Made by a program: the position numbers and the translations under genes. Below, one piece after another: positions 3,388 to 13,949 of a stretch of DNA of 64,000 nucleotides. Below the pieces are notes generated by a model. That model saw only the letters and a program-made list of their open reading frames with translations, had not been told where the DNA came from and searched no databases. Positions within the stretch are counted from its first letter, which is position 1; the number at the start of each line of letters is the position of its first letter. The stretch comes from Myxococcota bacterium. GTDB lineage: Bacteria; Myxococcota; UBA727; JAHDBA01. The stretch is from NCBI GenBank assembly GCA_020630615.1, contig JAHDBA010000001.1, positions 155,881 to 219,880 of the forward strand, read 5' to 3'.

Positions 3388-3872
3388 ACTCAAGAACAAA
3401 AGTGTTTGACTGCATTGAATCGGAGACACTGGATCACGTGGCTTCGACGCACGCCGCCAATGCCTTAGAAAGGGTACCAGACTACCGAAAGTTTTCGCGG
3501 TTTTGGGTCATGATTTCCGTCCTTATCTTTGTAGCCCTTGAGGCTCTGCTCAGTATGGGCGTGCAGCATTTCCTCGGTCCCTCACGCATGTCGGCAATGT
3601 TCACATTTCGCCTTGATATGCTAATGCATCTGGCGGCATATTTTAGTGGGGCATTCATTATTGGCTTTGTGTCTCCGGGTATCCGGATTGACGAGCCGTG
3701 CATTGGGGCACTTATCTCTGCGCTCTTAACATTGGCATACGGAATGTTCATGCCCAACCACTTCTGGGGAGTCACACCGGGTAAAGCACTCTTCGTCACT
3801 CTTTTTGTTGTGGGTGTTGCGTATGCCGGTTCACGCTTTGGGGAAAAGTCGAGCGGAGAACTCGTTGAGTAG
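3384..3872 (+). CDS. Hypothetical integral membrane protein
   Basis: ATG 3384 overlaps the upstream stop (ATGA); hydrophobic segments in the C-terminal two-thirds. Confidence 0.45.
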   Translation: MNSRTKVFDCIESETLDHVASTHAANALERVPDYRKFSRFWVMISVLIFVALEALLSMGVQHFLGPSRMSAMFTFRLDMLMHLAAYFSGAFIIGFVSPGIRIDEPCIGALISALLTLAYGMFMPNHFWGVTPGKALFVTLFVVGVAYAGSRFGEKSSGELVE

Positions 3873-4748
3873 GGTGTGTGCTTCAGGGCTCTTCCTATTT
3901 TTGGAATGGCCGTGACTTAAGGTTGTATACAAGGTCAGAAAGTCGCACTTCAGGTTGCTGCGATGAGCGAGTAATAGGGATAACTCCCCGAGAGTGGAAC
4001 CCGTTGTGATGACGTCATCAACAAGAATGAGACGCACTGATTTTTGCGCGAGTCTTTTCGAGAGGCGTTTTGATAGTTTTTTGAGTCGAAAGCGCGGGCC
4101 GTTGGTGTTGCGGGCTTGACGTGTTTGACTTCGTGTTGTTTGGTGAAGGCGCTTGCCACGCCAGCGCTCGAACGCTTCATCGAAATGCAGCCCTTTGTAC
4201 GTACGCACGACATCAAAAAGGGGGGCGGTGTCGAGCTCAAAGCATCTCGCAACTTCTTTCGCGATGATGTGTGCAAGATTGAACCCACGGCTCACAGCTT
4301 GCCTTCGACTCGTAGGTACCCAAGTGACTAAAACTTCATCATGAATATCGAGTATTGTAGCAATCTCTTGTTTGGAATGTTCAAGACATCGACGGGTTAA
4401 ACGACCCACACCACGTGCGTGTACTGGACACTCTCGTGCTTTTGCTTGGGTGAGTGGGAATTTAAAAGGCGCAAGAAAAGGCAGCAACGAGAGAGCTGTA
4501 GTGTGATCATCAAGGGTTTTGACTGCATTTTGTTTTCGCATTGCTCGAGAGCGGTACTCGTGGTGAGATTGGGAGGCGTCTTCGAAGTTTGGGTTCGTAG
4601 AGTCTCGCGAAGCTGCAACGCGGGGAACTAAATGTTTGATTTGCTCCAAGCACGTTTCAGACATCACGAGCTCGGCCCTCAAGCACGATGTGCAAATGGG
4701 TTTCAAATCAAGATGTTGCTTCGAGCAATAAAGACATGAAATTTCCAT
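3831..4748 (-). CDS. comF: ComF/GntX-family phosphoribosyltransferase (competence protein F-like)
   Basis: N-terminal double CxxC zinc-finger (CLYCSKQ…CTSC) and C-terminal PRTase motif LILVDDVITTGSTL; start taken at MEISCLYC. Confidence 0.6.
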   Translation of the reverse strand: MEISCLYCSKQHLDLKPICTSCLRAELVMSETCLEQIKHLVPRVAASRDSTNPNFEDASQSHHEYRSRAMRKQNAVKTLDDHTTALSLLPFLAPFKFPLTQAKARECPVHARGVGRLTRRCLEHSKQEIATILDIHDEVLVTWVPTSRRQAVSRGFNLAHIIAKEVARCFELDTAPLFDVVRTYKGLHFDEAFERWRGKRLHQTTRSQTRQARNTNGPRFRLKKLSKRLSKRLAQKSVRLILVDDVITTGSTLGELSLLLAHRSNLKCDFLTLYTTLSHGHSKNRKSPEAHTLLNEFSARLFPKA

Positions 4749-4883
4749 ACTAACCTTTGGCGTGCTCCCACTATTCTTGCGATCTTCAAGCAAAAAAAAT
4801 GCACAATGAATTGCGCATGAAAGTCGCGTGTCACGACATTCAGGTCGTTGACACCACTAAGCTGACTTGGTCTACTACGCGCA

Positions 4884-5909
4884 ATGGATCACCAAGGGGG
4901 CTCCTTGAAGCATGTTAAACGCCGAAGCTTGAAGTCCTATACCCAGAAGGGGGCAACCTTTTTCGTGTTGCTGACAGTAGTGCTGACCGTGTTGCTAATG
5001 TCAATGTCCCTGCAAGCTGAGACTCAAACCAAAGTGTTTTTGAATGGGGAGCCAGCACCTGTATTCTTCAATGATGGTGATAGTTTCCGAGTTTTAGGCG
5101 GTCGTTTCGCGGGATCGAAAGCCCGTCTCGCGGGTTTTAATACGCTCGAATCTCATGGCCCTGTGCACAGTTGGGGAACATGGACGACCAAAGAAATGTA
5201 CAACTTCGCAAAGATTGCGACGTGGCATGCACAAAAAGGCATTTGGCATTGCGAATCTGAAGACCTGTCGACCGATACCTATGGGCGGATTCTCTGGTAC
5301 TGCAAAGATCTTGCAATCGACCAGGTTCGACGTGGCTACGCACACGCAATGGTGATCGGCGACCTCCCATTTGAAAAAGAGATTCTCGAGGCCCAACATG
5401 ACGCCATCGATAATCGACGAGGAATCTGGGCACGCGGTGTACCGAATGTCATACTGACCTCGACCCATTCCACGTCAGAAGGTGGCGGCAAGGACGGCAA
5501 AACCTACAATCGTTTGGTATCGAGCAGAACTGCTCGGTCTTACAAATGGCAACACAATGATCGATACGGGGAATGCCAGAATGTGTGCGCGCAATATTAC
5601 GAAACCACGGACTCCGTTTTAGAAAAGGTTGCAACACAACTCAAAGCTGTGCCTGAACTCAAAAGTATTGTTTCAGGTGTTGAAGACCTAGAGCTGATTC
5701 AAAACATGGTTTCGCATGTCATGTACGATTCAATGACGATTTCGAAAGACAAAGATGAAAATGCAATGGTTGCGACGGTGCTTGACTCATTGCTCACACC
5801 TGATGTCATGAAGCATATTCGCCCAATTGCGGGCAAGAGTGAGAGTTGCATGGTTTACGTCGACTTCCAGAGACGATATGGGCCCGACAAAGCAAAGTGT
5901 TTAAGGTGA
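4884..5909 (+). CDS. Secreted SNase-like (thermonuclease/micrococcal-nuclease family) protein
   Basis: Signal-peptide-like N-terminus; NDGDSFRV…ARLAGFNTLE and GIWA motifs resemble the staphylococcal nuclease fold; an alternative TTG start at 4905 has a better RBS. Confidence 0.55.
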   Translation: MDHQGGSLKHVKRRSLKSYTQKGATFFVLLTVVLTVLLMSMSLQAETQTKVFLNGEPAPVFFNDGDSFRVLGGRFAGSKARLAGFNTLESHGPVHSWGTWTTKEMYNFAKIATWHAQKGIWHCESEDLSTDTYGRILWYCKDLAIDQVRRGYAHAMVIGDLPFEKEILEAQHDAIDNRRGIWARGVPNVILTSTHSTSEGGGKDGKTYNRLVSSRTARSYKWQHNDRYGECQNVCAQYYETTDSVLEKVATQLKAVPELKSIVSGVEDLELIQNMVSHVMYDSMTISKDKDENAMVATVLDSLLTPDVMKHIRPIAGKSESCMVYVDFQRRYGPDKAKCLR

Positions 5910-6027
5910 AGTGTCGAAGATGAAGGATCGAAATTTTAAATCACGCTAAAGTTGGCATTTGTTTGGCATTCAAAAGAGGTCCGTGCCGAGATTGAGACCG
6001 AATACAATTTTTGAGAGGTTAACGCGA

Positions 6028-7203
6028 ATGAGAGTTCAAAACACAGGTTCATACAAGCAGAGTTCAAAACTTTCGCGGGTGACTTTCTTTAAACTTTTGA
6101 CCTTTCTTTTATGCGTTACACCACTGCTCGCAGGAGGGATCTGTGCCTATGAACTGCCATCGCAAGCCGTGCTTGGTTATGAAAACAATGAAGACGCATG
6201 CCGCGATGGTGAAGACAATGACGGTGATCGACGTATCGATTGTGAAGATCCGGACTGTATGCTTGCTGACGCAACCTGTGGTGGTATCGAGCCTTTGATA
6301 CCCTTTTATGAAGAAGAGTCGAATTACTTAACTTGCACCGACGGAATCGATAACGATAATGATGGTACTTGGGACTGTGGTGAACGAACCTGCCAAGCCA
6401 TCTTGGAGCTGTGTTGCATCGGTGAGTTCACCAACAAAGACTGTTCGGATGGAATTGATAACGACGGAAACAACTTTACGGACTGCGAAGATTTTGGATG
6501 CTCAGGTCTTTTTACGACAGTTTGTGATGATGTCGTGACTTTATCCGCTAGTGAAACAGGTCAAGACTGTTACGATGGCATCGATAATGACGGAAACGGA
6601 TTCGGCGATTGTCGTGATTTTAGCTGTGCGGATGAATGTATTGGTGTTCCTTCGGAAAACTCAGAGGATGCCTGCAGCAATGGTGTAGACGACGATCGCA
6701 ACACCTATGTGGATTGCGATGATCGAAACTGTGAAAACACCGATTATTGTCGGGCGCGAAGCGAAACAACCTTAGAAAAATGTTCGGATGGGGTTGATAA
6801 CGATGAGAACGGCTACACAGATTGTGGCGATTTTTCCTGTTCTCGTTCTTTAGAACCAGAAATTATTCAACATTGTGCGGCGACCAATGAGGGCAATACT
6901 CTTGAGAGCTGTACCGATGGAATCGACAACGATGGCAATGGCTATGTCGACTGTGCAGACAACAGTTGTGCGATTTCTGCTCGTGACATCGAAGGGCGTA
7001 GTTGGTCTGCTGGCAAGCTCGCGTGTTCAGAGCTCGCACACGGTCAAGGCTATCGTGAAGCATGCTCAGATGGAATCGATAATGACGGCAATGGCTTCAC
7101 CGATTGTGAGGATGCGCATTGTATCTTTGCACCGGTTGATACGGGTTGTGCGCTTACAGATGGGGTCTGTGGTGCAACGCGCAATGATACGTTCACATAC
7201 TAA
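6028..7203 (+). CDS. Secreted protein made of 8 tandem Cys-rich CxDGxDNDGNGxxDCxDxxC repeats
   Basis: GAGAGG RBS before ATG 6028; hydrophobic signal sequence; eight ~22-aa repeats, each with 3 Cys and a DNDGNG acidic loop. Confidence 0.6.
   Translation: MRVQNTGSYKQSSKLSRVTFFKLLTFLLCVTPLLAGGICAYELPSQAVLGYENNEDACRDGEDNDGDRRIDCEDPDCMLADATCGGIEPLIPFYEEESNYLTCTDGIDNDNDGTWDCGERTCQAILELCCIGEFTNKDCSDGIDNDGNNFTDCEDFGCSGLFTTVCDDVVTLSASETGQDCYDGIDNDGNGFGDCRDFSCADECIGVPSENSEDACSNGVDDDRNTYVDCDDRNCENTDYCRARSETTLEKCSDGVDNDENGYTDCGDFSCSRSLEPEIIQHCAATNEGNTLESCTDGIDNDGNGYVDCADNSCAISARDIEGRSWSAGKLACSELAHGQGYREACSDGIDNDGNGFTDCEDAHCIFAPVDTGCALTDGVCGATRNDTFTY
6199..7113 (+). repeat. Coding array of 8 Cys-rich Asp/Asn/Gly repeats
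   Basis: Repeats CRDGEDNDGDRRIDCEDPDC … CSDGIDNDGNGFTDCEDAHC read directly from the translation. Confidence 0.7.
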
Positions 7204-7253
7204 TATTCCCATATTCGAGACTTCTTCAACGCTGAAAAAATCGAGGCAAAGTG

Positions 7254-9020
7254 ATGGTTAACAAAACAAAAACTCATGGACTAATCTTTCTGAGTGGTTT
7301 GATCGTATTCGGGTCAACCTTTCTACATGCTGCCGATAGCGTTGAGAGTGACGTCGTCAGTAACGACAGCGCTGCGGGTGGAACTTTAGAAGAAGTTGCA
7401 CCTCGTTTTGAAGAAGTCGCAAGTGAACTGGAAGAAGCTGGTAGCGCGAGCTCCGCGACCGATGAACCCGCATACCCTGTCGAGCAAAACTGTGGTGACA
7501 AAATTGATAACGACAACGACGCACTGATTGATTGTGCTGATGCAGATTGTTATTCGAGCCCAGAATGCAAAAGCAGTGGTGGTGCCGAAGCGACTGACGC
7601 ACTTTGTAGTGATTTTATTGATAACGATAACGATGGGTATAAAGACTGCGATGACAAAGACTGCCAAGTCTCGACTGTAAGCGTATGTCGTGGCTCGTGG
7701 GATCGTCAAGCCGCGTCGCGCAGTTCGTCACGCTCATCGACAATCCCTTTGGTGCCTGCACGCGGCGATACATCATCAGCTTTGAAGCCAGGTATGGACG
7801 TAGAAGAGCTCATCGGCACCAACGGGGATGCTGACGGTGAGCGCAACAATATCATGTGTGCTGATGGTATCGATAACGACGGTGACGGCATGACAGATTG
7901 TGATGATGTGGGTTGTCGCTTTGACCCGATGGTGACTGTGTGCCGCGGCGTACCCGGGTTACGCTTCTCGCTTGTTTCGCATGTGAGCGCTGAGTTAAAG
8001 CATCAGAGAGACTATGCCGGTAGTGTGGTGCCTGCTCCTTCAAACTATTTGGGGACACCGGCTGATTTCTTCAGTGATGGTAGTGCGGATGTGCGTTTTA
8101 GTGCGCTTCAGCTTCGTGTGTTTGGGCCGATGCCTGGTATTCAAGATTCTTTCTTCTTCATCTCAACCCGAATGGAGAAAACACCACGTCTAACTTTCGC
8201 AATGGCGCAGTTTCCGATTAAGAATGGCCACTTTTTTGGTGTGAACAGTGGTGGCGGGGGTCTATCAAACGCGCTGATTCGTTCTGTCGCAAAACGAGCG
8301 TTAATAGACCCGCCCTTTTATCTTTACTCTGCCTTTGAGCAAGGCAATGGTGCAGCGATCGAGTTCAATGGCCCCATCATCCCAGGGACAATGGATTACC
8401 GCCTGTTTTTAGCGGGTGGTGCTGGTGTATTCAACGGTAATGTTGGTGGGCGATTCTTTAGCTTTGATAACAACAACTTTACCTACAGTGCAGGCGGTCA
8501 ACTGACGTTAAGCCCAATCGGTTACTACAACCGTTGGGACACCGAGTATCTTTATGTACCGGTACCCACGACATTGGGTATCAATATTGGTGCGCGTTGG
8601 GATCAACGTTCACAAGAGCGCTTTCCTGCTGTGAATATCTCATCCGTACTTCGTGCAGGTCGCTTTATCGGTGCTTTAGAAGGTTATGGGAAACGCGAGC
8701 TGAACTTTGATTCGTGGCAAGGTGCTTACAACGTAATGGTTGGCGGTTTGTTGATACCCAAGTATTTGTTCGTGGCTGCCGATGTGGGTCAGTTCATTTC
8801 AACCGATATGAAAAACCCACCAGCGGTGTTTCAGACAGACCTGCGTCGCCAGCGTGATACCTTTCAATACCGGCTCGGTCTGCACGTCTATGTTTGGAAG
8901 AACCTTGGTGTTCTGTCAGCAATCTTCACAGATAACTTCGAGGGGCCAGGTCCAAACAACGATGGTGACCCGAACACCAATGAACGTTCAGTCAAGTTGG
9001 TTGGCCAGTTTCGATTTTAG
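7254..9020 (+). CDS. Outer-membrane beta-barrel protein with N-terminal signal peptide and 3 Cys-rich DNDxDG repeats
   Basis: GAGG RBS 7 nt before ATG 7254; repeats CGDKIDNDNDALIDCADADC, CSDFIDNDNDGYKDCDDKDC, CADGIDNDGDGMTDCDDVGC; C-terminal ~400 aa has alternating beta-strand character and ends in …VGQFRF (terminal Phe typical of OMPs). Confidence 0.6.
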   Translation: MVNKTKTHGLIFLSGLIVFGSTFLHAADSVESDVVSNDSAAGGTLEEVAPRFEEVASELEEAGSASSATDEPAYPVEQNCGDKIDNDNDALIDCADADCYSSPECKSSGGAEATDALCSDFIDNDNDGYKDCDDKDCQVSTVSVCRGSWDRQAASRSSSRSSTIPLVPARGDTSSALKPGMDVEELIGTNGDADGERNNIMCADGIDNDGDGMTDCDDVGCRFDPMVTVCRGVPGLRFSLVSHVSAELKHQRDYAGSVVPAPSNYLGTPADFFSDGSADVRFSALQLRVFGPMPGIQDSFFFISTRMEKTPRLTFAMAQFPIKNGHFFGVNSGGGGLSNALIRSVAKRALIDPPFYLYSAFEQGNGAAIEFNGPIIPGTMDYRLFLAGGAGVFNGNVGGRFFSFDNNNFTYSAGGQLTLSPIGYYNRWDTEYLYVPVPTTLGINIGARWDQRSQERFPAVNISSVLRAGRFIGALEGYGKRELNFDSWQGAYNVMVGGLLIPKYLFVAADVGQFISTDMKNPPAVFQTDLRRQRDTFQYRLGLHVYVWKNLGVLSAIFTDNFEGPGPNNDGDPNTNERSVKLVGQFRF

Positions 9021-9040
9021 GTTTTTGACTTTCTCGATTG

Positions 9041-9066
9041 AAGCGCGGTTTTCCGCGCTTTTTTCT
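9041..9066 (+). terminator. Rho-independent terminator
   Basis: aagcgcgg-tttt-ccgcgctt hairpin followed by TTTTT, 20 nt after the stop at 9020. Confidence 0.65.
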
Positions 9067-9082
9067 TGGGGTATTGTGAACT

Positions 9083-11806: not shown

Positions 11807-12115
11807 ATGTTGAAAGAAAACAAGAAAGAAAGCCCAATCTCAAGAACAGGAATAATGACTTTTGGCGCAGTCGCCGCACTGATGATTTCAGCATGTGGCA
11901 GCGATTCCAACGCTGATGTCGATGCCAATGAAAGCGGAAACACAGAGTCGGAGCTTGTGCACTGCTACGGCATTAATGAATGTGCCGGTACAGCCGAATG
12001 CGCCGGTGCAAACAACGATTGTCAAGGCTTGAACGAGTGCGCAGGCCAAGGATTTATCTCCGTCACCCAAGCAGAATGTGATGAAGAAGGCGGCTCAACA
12101 GAAGCACCCGCATAG
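11807..12115 (+). CDS. Bufferin-like RiPP precursor (DUF2282 / multi-Cys bufferin-type) with lipoprotein-type signal peptide
   Basis: AAGGAG RBS 7 nt before the ATG; lipobox-like …LMISAC; core has CYGINECAG, AECAG, NDCQG, NECAGQG, AEC, matching the CYG…NDC…CAGQ pattern remembered for DUF2282/bufferin precursors; sits immediately upstream of a DUF692 gene. Confidence 0.6.
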   Translation: MLKENKKESPISRTGIMTFGAVAALMISACGSDSNADVDANESGNTESELVHCYGINECAGTAECAGANNDCQGLNECAGQGFISVTQAECDEEGGSTEAPA

Positions 12116-12147
12116 TTCTTACCCGCATTGATACGAAAGAGACGACC

Positions 12148-13062
12148 ATGAATTTTGAAATTGGTTTTGGCCTAAGAAGACCGCACTATGCAGAAATACT
12201 ACGAGAAGGCGTACGCGTTCCGGTGGTTGAGTGCATTAGTGAGAACCTTTTTCAGATGCGTGGTCGTCCTTTTCGTGTTGTGGAGAGAGCCCGTCAAAAT
12301 GCAGAACTTTTACTTCATGGGGTTTCGCTTTCGATTGGCGATATGGACGAAATCCCTACAGACACGTTAAAAGAGCTTCGAGAGCTTGATTCGATCCTTG
12401 AGGCAAAAGTGATTAGCGATCACTTGTGTTTTGGCCGCGCGCATGGTCGACGTGGATTTGACCTTTGGCCGCTCCCGATGAACGAAGCGATGATTTCTCA
12501 TTTGGTGGCTCGCATTGGTCGAGTGCAAGATGTCCTCGGTCGTCGCATTGCTCTAGAAAACATTTCTGCATACTGCCGCTTTGAAGCAGATGAAATGTCT
12601 GAAGTTGAATTCATCAATCAGATCTGTCTGCGTGCAGATTGCCTTCTTTTACTCGATCTCAATAATTTGCTCGTGAATGAGCGAAACTTTAACCAACCTG
12701 CAACCGAGTTTTTACAAGAGCTTGACTTAAGTCGCATTGCGCAAGTTCATGTCGGGGGTCATAGTGACCTGGGCACCCATGCATTTGATGATCATGCATC
12801 GCCACCGAGTGATGCGTGTATCCAACTCTTCGTGCACCTCACACAACTTCTGCAAGCCACAGAACTCAATCTCAAAAACACAGATGTATTCACAATCCTA
12901 GAGTGGGACGGAAATATTCCAAAGATTGAACGATTCTATCAAGAGACCCAGCGTCTCAAAAAAAGTATAGCGGGCATGCGTGCTACAAAGAGCATGAACA
13001 CAAAAATCGATGACTCTCTTTTCAATCTTGAGAAAGCCGAGCGAGAGGGTGTTCGCATATGA
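12148..13062 (+). CDS. MNIO enzyme (DUF692/UPF0276, MbnB/BufB-like)
   Basis: N-terminal EIGFGLRRPHY… start characteristic of DUF692; TIM-barrel-like length (~300 aa); 3' end overlaps the next gene (ATGA). Confidence 0.8.
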   Translation: MNFEIGFGLRRPHYAEILREGVRVPVVECISENLFQMRGRPFRVVERARQNAELLLHGVSLSIGDMDEIPTDTLKELRELDSILEAKVISDHLCFGRAHGRRGFDLWPLPMNEAMISHLVARIGRVQDVLGRRIALENISAYCRFEADEMSEVEFINQICLRADCLLLLDLNNLLVNERNFNQPATEFLQELDLSRIAQVHVGGHSDLGTHAFDDHASPPSDACIQLFVHLTQLLQATELNLKNTDVFTILEWDGNIPKIERFYQETQRLKKSIAGMRATKSMNTKIDDSLFNLEKAEREGVRI

Positions 13063-13949
13063 TCAAAAGCTTTGAAAACAAGCGAGCATTCGACAGTTCA
13101 CAATACATACACTCGGAAGTGAATCCGGATGCACTGGCTCACCTTCAGTCTGAGTTGGGTGCCTTTGCAGAATCAGCGCTCGGTATTGGCGTATTGCAAA
13201 CGCGCGGTCTGAGAGCTGCAGGTACATTGAGTGTTCAAGAGGCTGCATCTGTGTATGAAACAAGTTCGCGCCTAATTCGAGACCGTACAATTCAGACACT
13301 TTTTCCCGTGACGATGGCTTATCTTCATGATGTGAATGCCGACCACTCTGGCATCTTGAAAGAATACCGAGAGTGGCAACACGATAGGGGCGGCGCCCTA
13401 GAAACCTATGGTGAGGGTTTTCCTCGAGCATTGCAAACTTACAATGCCATTGCGGCTAAAATAGCGTTCTATGAATGGGAACGCTTTGCATCGCATCGAA
13501 TTGCGATTCCAAGGCCAGAAGGCAATCAAGCACTTGTGCTACCTGTCGAAAGATTCGCAAGCGAGGGTATGAAGCTTGGTTTGGACGCACCGAATGTACG
13601 TGTTTTCGAGACACAAGAAGCGTTAGCAGAAATGATGAAGTCCAGCACTCAAGCTGGGTCTCCTGCGCTTGATGAATCCGAAGAAATCTGCGGCATTTTG
13701 ATGAACCCCAGTGTTGCCGGTGTTCGGGAGCATATCGTATCACGCGTTCTTGTCGCTCTCGTTCGAGAACTGCAACGCTCGCGTGCGAATCATGATGTTA
13801 CGCCAGGAGGCCTTGTCGTAAAACTTCAACGCGATGGCTTTTCAGGTGTAGAAGTTGCCAGTGCACTTCGTGACGCCATTCACCATAAGCTTCTCATCAG
13901 TGAGGGGCGAACGATTGCATTTTCAAACTCAAAGAAAACCAAAGGATGA
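13059..13949 (+). CDS. Putative MNIO partner protein (DUF2063/BufC/MbnC-like)
   Basis: Translationally coupled to the DUF692 gene, as in bufferin/methanobactin operons; size fits; motif assignment (…FENKRAF…NPDA) is weak. Confidence 0.5.
   Translation: MIKSFENKRAFDSSQYIHSEVNPDALAHLQSELGAFAESALGIGVLQTRGLRAAGTLSVQEAASVYETSSRLIRDRTIQTLFPVTMAYLHDVNADHSGILKEYREWQHDRGGALETYGEGFPRALQTYNAIAAKIAFYEWERFASHRIAIPRPEGNQALVLPVERFASEGMKLGLDAPNVRVFETQEALAEMMKSSTQAGSPALDESEEICGILMNPSVAGVREHIVSRVLVALVRELQRSRANHDVTPGGLVVKLQRDGFSGVEVASALRDAIHHKLLISEGRTIAFSNSKKTKG

Follow-up and report, generated by a model that had tools for sequence, protein, structure and literature searches.

The cysteine-rich (C-rich) domain of teneurins is described in atomic detail. 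The 1.5 A crystal structure of residues 834-871 of human Teneurin-4 (7PLP) holds three octahedrally coordinated Ca2+ ions, whose ligands are E835, D840, D843, N844, D845, D847, D851, D854 and D856 together with backbone carbonyls (PMC9058538). Ca2+ stabilises the conformation of the domain, sites I and II superpose on the type 3 sites of TSP-1, the third site resembles an LDL-receptor A module, and the disulfides pair 1-3, 2-5 and 4-6, among them C838-C857 and C852-C863 (PMC9058538). In prokaryotes, a repeat family is on record in NCBIfam as NF033662, "acidic double-disulfide repeat-containing protein": it defines a repeat to which no function is assigned, it is silent on porin fusions and operons, and a literature search found no paper using the family name. 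Here we analyse two adjacent genes assigned to this family, located in a 64,000-nucleotide (nt) stretch of a Myxococcota genome (contig JAHDBA010000001.1, positions 155,881 to 219,880; hereafter the window), whose products carry modules homologous to the teneurin domain. Together with a third gene, for a nuclease-fold protein, they form a three-gene unit on one strand (4884-9020) that recurs as a block in Myxococcota.

Two further kinds of described protein are needed for the comparison. Staphylococcal nuclease (SNase) is the textbook Ca2+-dependent nuclease. Porins of 16 strands have both termini in the periplasm, and we take DcaP, with a coiled coil, and OmpM1, with an SLH domain, to be porins with N-terminal periplasmic extensions; we know of no porin whose extension is built from Ca2+ modules. 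What is already known is the porin with a periplasmic extension as a kind and NF033662 as a name, and what is new is an extension made of modules in a conserved, unannotated operon. We hold our structural statements on the unit with high confidence. The package as a whole, a porin with a Ca2+-stiffened periplasmic scaffold acting with a Ca2+-dependent nuclease, is the reading that we favour, and we give it even chances. The genes and their modules, each module running from its first to its fourth Cys, are the following (aa, amino acids; ORF, open reading frame):

4884-5909, + strand: gene 1, secreted SNase-fold protein, 341 aa, predicted signal peptide ending in SLQA before ETQ
6028-7203, + strand: ORF1 (gene 2), 391 aa, ATG start
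6199-7149, + strand: ORF1 module region overall
6199-6279, 6334-6414, 6442-6525, 6568-6639, + strand: ORF1 modules 1-4
6673-6750, 6781-6876, 6910-7026, 7063-7149, + strand: ORF1 modules 5-8
7251-9020, + strand: ORF2 (gene 3), 589 aa from a GTG
7491-7568, 7605-7688, 7857-7943, + strand: ORF2 modules 1-3 (region 7491-7943)

A protein identical to ORF1 (391 aa) exists in NCBI (P0121), and the NCBI version of ORF2 starts one codon later, at the ATG at 7254, giving 588 aa (P0001). A sequence-only reading of the window had reported these two adjacent frames with 8 and 3 repeats, the first made of almost nothing else. All of this holds: the pattern C-x13-C-x4-C with D/N/G-rich loops occurs in 8 copies in ORF1, which is essentially all modules, and in 3 copies in ORF2. 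The core consensus is C-S-D-G-I-D-N-D-G-[ND]-G-x-x-D-C-x-D-x-x-C, in which D6, D8 and D14 are invariant over the 11 copies. The three Cys per repeat of the same reading have to be corrected to four, since all 11 copies (11/11) have an invariant fourth Cys 3-18 residues past the third, and the full module is C-x13-C-x4-C-x3-18-C, about 30-45 residues long in the tandem array of ORF1. A stricter motif, C.[DN]..D[ND]D.[DN]...DC, gave 11 matches in a six-frame translation of the whole window, all inside ORF1 and ORF2 and none elsewhere. Of the 36 Cys of ORF1, 32 belong to modules, one lies within the signal peptide, the conserved Cys39 marks the end of that peptide, and C130 and C381 are extra; ORF2 has 12 Cys, every one of them modular.

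The 20-residue cores share a mean identity of 58% at the protein level and 60% at the DNA level, with a DNA maximum of 75%; because of these values we read the copies as old protein-level repeats kept by selection on the protein, rather than as recent DNA duplications. A chance or low-complexity origin of the modules is ruled out by the E-values given below, by frame specificity and by Cys that are invariant across hundreds of homologues.

The repeat, which the sequence-only reading could not place in a named domain, scores as NF033662. This model of 32 positions has a curated cut-off of 41 bits for the whole-protein score; ORF1 reaches 198.1 bits (E 9e-60) over 8 stretches and ORF2 78.9 bits (E 1.6e-22) over 3 stretches, and the four Cys per repeat in an acidic setting that define the family are found in all 11 copies. 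By these scores both proteins are members of NF033662. Pfam lacks a model of the repeat and gives no match on either protein; TSP_3, EF-hand and Cu-binding_MopE are absent even at E up to 1-10.

A solved eukaryotic relative is revealed by profile searches. A profile of ORF2 and 39 homologues, compared with all PDB sequences, retrieved only teneurins, the best match being 7plp (the C-rich domain of human Teneurin-4, E 1.5e-6). When the profile was restricted to the modules, the same entry was matched at E 6.8e-8, with Teneurin-2, -3 and -4 and fly Ten-m also found and no significant match beyond teneurins. The search also works in reverse: NF033662 gives the human Ten4 C-rich peptide 45 bits, which exceeds the cut-off, and the match spans positions 3-32 of the 32 in the model. 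Ten2 C-rich and a Monosiga core score 36 and 28 bits.

The correspondence extends to individual residues. The spacing ExxCxDxxDNDxDxxxDCxDxDC of the teneurin domain is the same in the bacterial module, and the two share the acidic Ca2+ ligands as well as four of the teneurin domain's six Cys. Of the nine teneurin ligand positions, every one of the 11 modules has 7-9 occupied by Asp, Glu or Asn: 9/9 in four modules (ORF2 modules 1 and 2, ORF1 modules 1 and 5), 8/9 in two, one of which is ORF2 module 3, and 7/9 in five. In 40 sequences of the ORF2 family the ligand equivalents are invariant. The bacterial Cys align with teneurin Cys 1, 2, 3 and 5, and two disulfides per module, C1-C3 and C2-C4, are therefore predicted. 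Equivalents of C858 and C869 are missing, so that the six-Cys, three-disulfide pattern of teneurins (...DCxxx(D/E)CCxxxxCxxxxxC), with its CC doublet and sixth Cys, is not found. On these comparisons the module is homologous to the teneurin C-rich domain but has fewer disulfides, and it is not a full teneurin-type domain. Since the crystallised homologue holds three Ca2+, the module very probably binds Ca2+ as well, with two to three ions per module predicted to be held by the invariant Asp and Asn. The TSP3-like Ca2+ loop proposed by the sequence-only reading thus finds support in a homologue with two sites of thrombospondin type 3 geometry. That the repeat might match a well-characterised family of known function, which that reading had treated as a possible objection, is borne out in part, in that a named family and a solved homologue exist.

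Differences in architecture separate the module from its relatives. Teneurins have the domain once, flanked by the EGF repeats and the TTR domain, within a YD-shell adhesion receptor, whereas the bacterial module forms tandem arrays of 3-12 copies and is found here in a porin and a lipoprotein. Thrombospondin type 3 repeats (PF02412) are likewise Asp-rich, Cys-containing Ca2+ loops, but their Cys pattern and spacing differ, and neither ORF1 nor ORF2 has a TSP_3 match at E up to 1. The teneurin C-rich core has also been aligned with a putative metal-binding motif of MopE type (Tucker et al., PMC3278476). The corresponding Pfam family, PF11617, co-occurs with the module in Myxococcaceae proteins and has no match in ORF1 or ORF2 at E up to 1.

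Homologues of ORF2 number at least 636, share about 50% identity with it over 87% of its length, and are "hypothetical" wherever named. The named organisms are all Myxococcota (Enhygromyxa salina, Haliangium, Nannocystaceae, Polyangiaceae, Sandaracinus and many metagenome-assembled genomes, MAGs), and conservation among relatives, on which the sequence-only reading had made its proposal depend, is strong. The protein consists, in order, of a signal peptide, a variable acidic linker, modules 1 and 2, a disordered linker, a D-L-I-G-x-G-x-D-x-D-G-E-R segment, module 3 and a beta-rich domain:

7251-7331, + strand: predicted ORF2 signal peptide, aa 1-27, ending in FLHA before AD
7806-7844, + strand: conserved D-L-I-G-x-G-x-D-x-D-G-E-R segment before module 3, resembling a DxDxDG-type loop
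7962-9017, + strand: predicted 16-strand beta-barrel, aa 238-589, ~350 aa
8247-8351, + strand: long conserved loop between strands 5 and 6, aa 333-367, NSGGGGLS...PPFYLYNAFEQGNG, with the motifs NSGGGGLS and FEQGNGAA

Across 40 aligned sequences neither the 12 Cys nor the module Asp residues vary, and each of the three modules keeps a conserved signature of its own.

The AlphaFold2 model, built on the 40-sequence alignment, places 16 strands within residues 238-588, mostly at pLDDT 80-97. The barrel is antiparallel, as in porins; strands 5 and 6 are joined by its longest and most conserved loop, which occupies the position of porin loop L3. The C-terminus reads ...VGQFRF, and in 39/40 aligned sequences the last residue is F or W, mostly within [YF]R[FW], an aromatic terminus of the kind that acts as beta-signal for BAM. 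The figures for the barrel against known porin folds are OprP 24.6, chitoporin 23.2, PorB 23.1, DcaP 22.9, Omp32 21.8 and OmpM1 19.5. On this model, ORF2 is a 16-strand porin-fold outer-membrane barrel with its modules placed between the signal peptide and the first strand. An outer-membrane barrel with N-terminal repeats had been foreseen by the sequence-only reading; its estimate of ~400 aa for the domain has to be reduced to ~350 aa (residues 238-589).

The fold is that of a classical porin, yet the sequence lies outside every known porin family. Structural alignments with the 16-strand trimeric porins OprP, Omp32, PorB and chitoporin give ~9% identity, no Pfam or NCBIfam porin model matches ORF2, and an exhaustive phmmer search with the barrel alone against 1.84 billion representatives returned only 63 clusters, all of its own family, with no outside relatives. 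Compared with DcaP and OmpM1, the extension of ORF2 differs in being built from Ca2+ modules. In the model, long loops follow strands 1, 5, 7, 13 and 15, and the other connections are mostly short turns. The modules are predicted to hang into the periplasm, like the N-terminal extensions of DcaP and OmpM1, because both termini of a 16-strand porin lie there, the pattern of loop lengths fits, and the modules need the periplasmic disulfide machinery. Strand periodicity assigns to the lumen many invariant residues, polar or charged and of both signs. The high conservation of the lumen and of the L3-like loop argues against a mere general porin, and a permeant is not indicated. Among relatives of the barrel, the divergent P0375 (365 aa), P0376 (349 aa), P0363 and P0373 are 34-48% identical to it and keep the signal peptide without modules; P0363 has a Pro-rich N-terminus in their place. 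For locus L080, grouped with them, the contig is only 1.3 kb long.

ORF1 also has many homologues, all hypothetical and from Myxococcota wherever named. Its features outside the modules are few:

6028-6144, + strand: predicted ORF1 signal peptide with conserved Cys39
6415-6417, + strand: extra Cys130, the second C of an E.CC..E motif directly after module 2
7168-7170, + strand: extra Cys381, near the C-terminus

In each of 12 porin-adjacent orthologues (12/12) a hydrophobic N-terminus ends in a Cys that is followed by ..P..GYE, and most of them have canonical lipoboxes at the aligned Cys (LSAC, VSGC, SAGC, MSGC, LAGC; criterion [LVI][ASTVI][GAS]C). ORF1 is accordingly a probable lipoprotein of the outer membrane, as judged from these signals, built almost solely of modules. 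Lys at +2 has been reported as an inner-membrane retention signal for lipoproteins of Myxococcus xanthus (PMC3222651). It occurs in none of the 12 orthologues, and since it is lacking throughout, an outer-membrane location is the default prediction. The number of modules varies from 7 to 12 among orthologues. Both extra Cys are present in 12/12 orthologues at the same relative places, the C-terminal one 1-4 residues from the end, and setting aside the lipobox Cys leaves an even number of Cys in every orthologue. A long-range C130-C381 disulfide is predicted from this pattern; it would tie the C-terminus to module 2 and close modules 3 to n into a loop.

So acidic a protein (14% Asp, 7% Glu), standing beside a porin that might admit Ca2+, raises the alternative of a periplasmic Ca2+ buffer or store, in which the 11 modules would hold exchangeable ions, up to ~33 Ca2+ per protein pair, and the nuclease would be one of several clients. 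The marine lineages of several named homologues (Enhygromyxa, Tara Oceans MAGs) are in keeping with it, as are teneurin sites I and II, which resemble thrombospondin type 3 sites generally regarded as exchangeable. The ions in the teneurin crystal, however, are fully coordinated and structural (PMC9058538), and the position-specific conservation of the three porin modules favours specific contacts over bulk buffering. We consider this buffer very improbable, the least probable of the explanations discussed here, and retain the stiffened scaffold as the more plausible role of bound Ca2+.

The third component was identified from its neighbourhood. The sequence-only reading had pointed to a TSP3-repeat OmpA protein near the start of the window as the companion of the module proteins, forming with them a local concentration of envelope proteins with Ca2+-binding repeats. 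That gene is real (Pfam OmpA and TSP_3), but it is not a conserved neighbour, no OmpA homologue having been found in 13 related loci; the conserved partner, which that reading had overlooked, is the SNase-like gene at 4884-5909. Its product has two domains after the signal peptide:

5025-5438, + strand: gene 1 SNase domain, aa ~48-185
5448-5906, + strand: gene 1 C-terminal domain, aa ~189-341 (~150 aa), with four invariant Cys

Gene 1 shows the SNase OB-fold and scores at or above the Pfam cut-off of the SNase family (PF00565); its C-terminal domain has no fold match. In 36 homologues the equivalents of SNase D21, R35, T41, E43, Y85, G86 and R87 are invariant (D66, R81, T87, E89 and R135 among them in gene 1 numbering), a correspondence that we drew from motif alignment (DGD, RL..(D/N)TxE, YGR) and SNase numbering. 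We read gene 1 as a divergent SNase that appears to keep the catalytic and phosphate-binding residues. Compared with the staphylococcal (micrococcal) nuclease or thermonuclease family, of which YncB is an example, it has an Asn at the Asp40 position, adds a conserved C-terminal domain of ~150 aa and is always linked to two module proteins.

The linkage was established by tblastn with the window proteins against the 13 related Myxococcota loci that encode the barrel, 11 of which include upstream DNA. A gene 1 homologue lies upstream of the porin gene, on the same strand and 2-3.5 kb away, in 11/11 of the latter. A module protein is encoded directly upstream of the porin at the 12 related loci where the DNA is present, L006 being cut inside the module gene. 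Nuclease, lipoprotein and porin genes follow one another in this order in each of the 11 loci that include upstream DNA. When all ORFs of the 13 loci were compared with one another, no fourth shared gene emerged, and the window genes for OmpA-TSP3, GloB, a Mpo1-like protein, a phosphoribosyltransferase (PRTase)-like protein, prfA and a small downstream ORF have no conserved link there. The module protein and the porin carry adjacent locus tags (KIT72_12280 and KIT72_12285) in a Polyangiaceae genome. The intergenic gaps of the window unit are 118 nt (gene 1/ORF1) and 47 nt (ORF1/ORF2), and stop and start codons overlap in some orthologous units. The end of the transcription unit is likely to be marked by one more element:

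9040-9071, + strand: terminator-like GC-rich hairpin with T-run, 20 nt past the ORF2 stop, 9 pairs of which 6 G-C, tail TTTCTTGGGG, a consensus match only

A scan for sigma-70 promoters found no sites, which is uninformative for Myxococcota. The matches listed, on which this judgement is based, suggest that the unit is absent from Myxococcia.

Since SNase is Ca2+-dependent, the unit pairs a probable Ca2+-dependent enzyme with two Ca2+-module proteins, and a mechanism can be proposed on that footing. The Ca2+-loaded modules would form a stiff, acidic scaffold in the periplasm beneath the porin, the three porin modules, each with its fixed signature, serving as docking sites. The lipoprotein, most likely anchored next to them in the outer membrane's inner leaflet, would be a Ca2+-rich partner of variable length. 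The unit would cooperate with the Ca2+-dependent nuclease, which would degrade nucleic acids at the envelope, and the porin would pass the degradation products, Ca2+ or both. Taken by itself, the coupling to the nuclease is tentative and rather doubtful.

A number of observations weigh against this reading. Six of the eight ORF1 modules lose one or two ligand positions, which leaves the Ca2+ stoichiometry uncertain, and the third teneurin disulfide has no counterpart in the bacterial module. The lipobox of ORF1 in the window is degenerate, AGGIC with Ile at -1, and cleavage by signal peptidase I may apply instead. The modules are not essential for the barrel, some divergent homologues having none. 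Conserved charges facing the lumen are mixed (basic: 6 Arg, 1 Lys and 1 His; acidic: 4 Asp and 4 Glu) and show no clear OprP-like cationic ladder pointing to phosphate or nucleotides, as estimated from strand periodicity; for this reason we claim no phosphate specificity. In the gene 1 family the SNase Ca2+ ligand Asp40 is replaced by an invariant Asn (N86), because of which the metal dependence or the substrate may differ from those of SNase. The functional link between nuclease and porin is drawn from gene order only, and Ca2+ binding, localisation, nuclease activity and channel properties are all predictions.

The mixed charges of the lumen, similar to those of general porins, also fit a purely structural explanation, in which a general diffusion porin and the module lipoprotein would form a Ca2+-dependent tether or spacer between outer membrane and cell wall, functionally like the SLH domain of OmpM or Braun's lipoprotein, the nuclease-fold protein being non-catalytic or an unrelated passenger. 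The presence of OmpM1 and DcaP, with their N-terminal periplasmic extensions, among the closest folds, the variation from 7 to 12 modules in the lipoprotein, as for a spacer, and the stabilisation of the homologous teneurin domain by Ca2+ (PMC9058538) are what this explanation would lead one to expect. It has more difficulty with the absence of any peptidoglycan-binding domain (OmpA-C, SLH, LysM) from the three proteins according to Pfam and NCBIfam, and with a nuclease-fold partner that keeps invariant catalytic residues and is present at every locus with upstream DNA; for a general porin, ~50% identity throughout the group and a lumen and L3 loop that do not vary would also be unusual. We judge the tether unlikely, though it is the strongest of the competing explanations, and prefer the scaffold acting with the nuclease.

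The module itself is widespread in prokaryotes, including bacteria of the Candidate Phyla Radiation (CPR), DPANN archaea and Bacteroidota, with 1-22 copies among the matches listed. Also among these matches, large module proteins occur in Woesearchaeota, Nanoarchaeota, Peribacteria, Saccharibacteria, Saprospiraceae, Fibrobacterales, Verrucomicrobiales and other lineages, at loci L014, L016, L035, L041, L055, L063 and L073, among others. The large module proteins that were sampled are fusions to FG-GAP, PKD, lamin-tail, somatomedin-B or DUF4215 domains. NHL or YD domains, as in teneurins, were found in 0/8 of them, and we therefore do not propose that the module is carried by bacterial teneurin-like proteins.

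Adhesin-like proteins of 800-2800 aa in which the module is fused to FG-GAP, PKD, lamin-tail or somatomedin-B domains suggest another role for ORF1: the lipoprotein might be exported to the surface, possibly via or with the barrel, as a Ca2+-dependent adhesin or matrix component. The teneurin that carries the homologous module is a cell-adhesion receptor; in the single-membrane lineages, DPANN archaea and CPR bacteria, the module is necessarily extracellular; and M. xanthus sends some lipoproteins to its matrix (PMC3222651). An Ala at +7, linked to such export, is present in 2/12 ORF1 orthologues, but the other 10/12 lack it, no sorting tag such as MYXO-CTERM is found at the ORF1 C-terminus, and a 16-strand porin with an L3-type constriction is no known lipoprotein exporter. 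Surface display accordingly seems to us quite unlikely, less so than the buffer and more so than the tether, and we keep the lipoprotein in the periplasm, beside the modules of the porin.

The distribution of the module bears on the origin of the teneurin domain. The only occurrences of the teneurin C-rich motif that Tucker et al. saw were a diatom enzyme and algal proteases, and they proposed an algal or diatom origin (PMC3278476); in a 2026 paper on bacterial teneurin-like proteins, the cysteine-rich region appears only as an element of the metazoan architecture (PMC13018210). Bacterial modules are up to 80-85% identical to the 20-residue teneurin core, as close as the diatom sequence, which is weak evidence given the shortness of the motif. 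A bolder reading makes the unit an unrecognised, Myxococcota-specific outer-membrane machine, with the corollary that the teneurin C-rich domain derives from the prokaryotic module family; we regard it as improbable, below the tether and above surface display. If it were true, a dedicated porin with periplasmic modules of teneurin type would hold the lipoprotein and the nuclease, the machine would couple the breakdown of nucleic acids, for example of prey or matrix DNA, to uptake, and the origin of the teneurin C-rich domain would lie in a large prokaryotic module family that is abundant in the phylum richest in bacterial teneurin-like proteins.

A link between a domain of an animal neuronal receptor and a large prokaryotic family bears on how teneurins were assembled, and the solved three-Ca2+ domain offers a way into the structure and function of a repeat family that has so far only been named and is spread over many bacterial and archaeal phyla. 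The locus also defines a compact, strongly conserved and wholly unannotated envelope unit of nuclease, module lipoprotein and module porin. As it is present in the cultivable Enhygromyxa salina, in the region of ENSA5_05180, and in Haliangium, envelope architecture, Ca2+ dependence and nucleic-acid scavenging can be tested in predatory bacteria.

Several other genes of the window were characterised in passing:

80-2017, + strand: OmpA-family protein with six TSP3 motifs (D.D.DG..D..D.C); Pfam TSP_3 30.7 bits
3831-4793, - strand: divergently oriented ORF of 320 aa carrying a phosphoribosyltransferase-like LILVDDVITTGSTL motif, similar by eye to ComF/GntX
11807-13949, + strand: probable bufferin-type RiPP (ribosomally synthesised and post-translationally modified peptide) gene cluster
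12148-13062: MbnB/TglH/ChrH-family enzyme of that cluster, Pfam 253 bits
13956-14477: 173-aa protein with two CxxCH motifs

For the OmpA-family protein, identity with TraB, the protein of outer-membrane exchange, was rejected: it is the best NCBIfam match, at 173 bits against a cut-off of 700. The divergently oriented ORF at 3831-4793 has no Pfam match at E <= 0.001 and is not conserved beside the unit in other loci. In the bufferin-type cluster, a 102-aa precursor matching NF050166 (BufA2 family periplasmic metallophore; 75 bits, cut-off 60) is followed by the MbnB/TglH/ChrH-family enzyme and then by a 296-aa ORF without a Pfam match.

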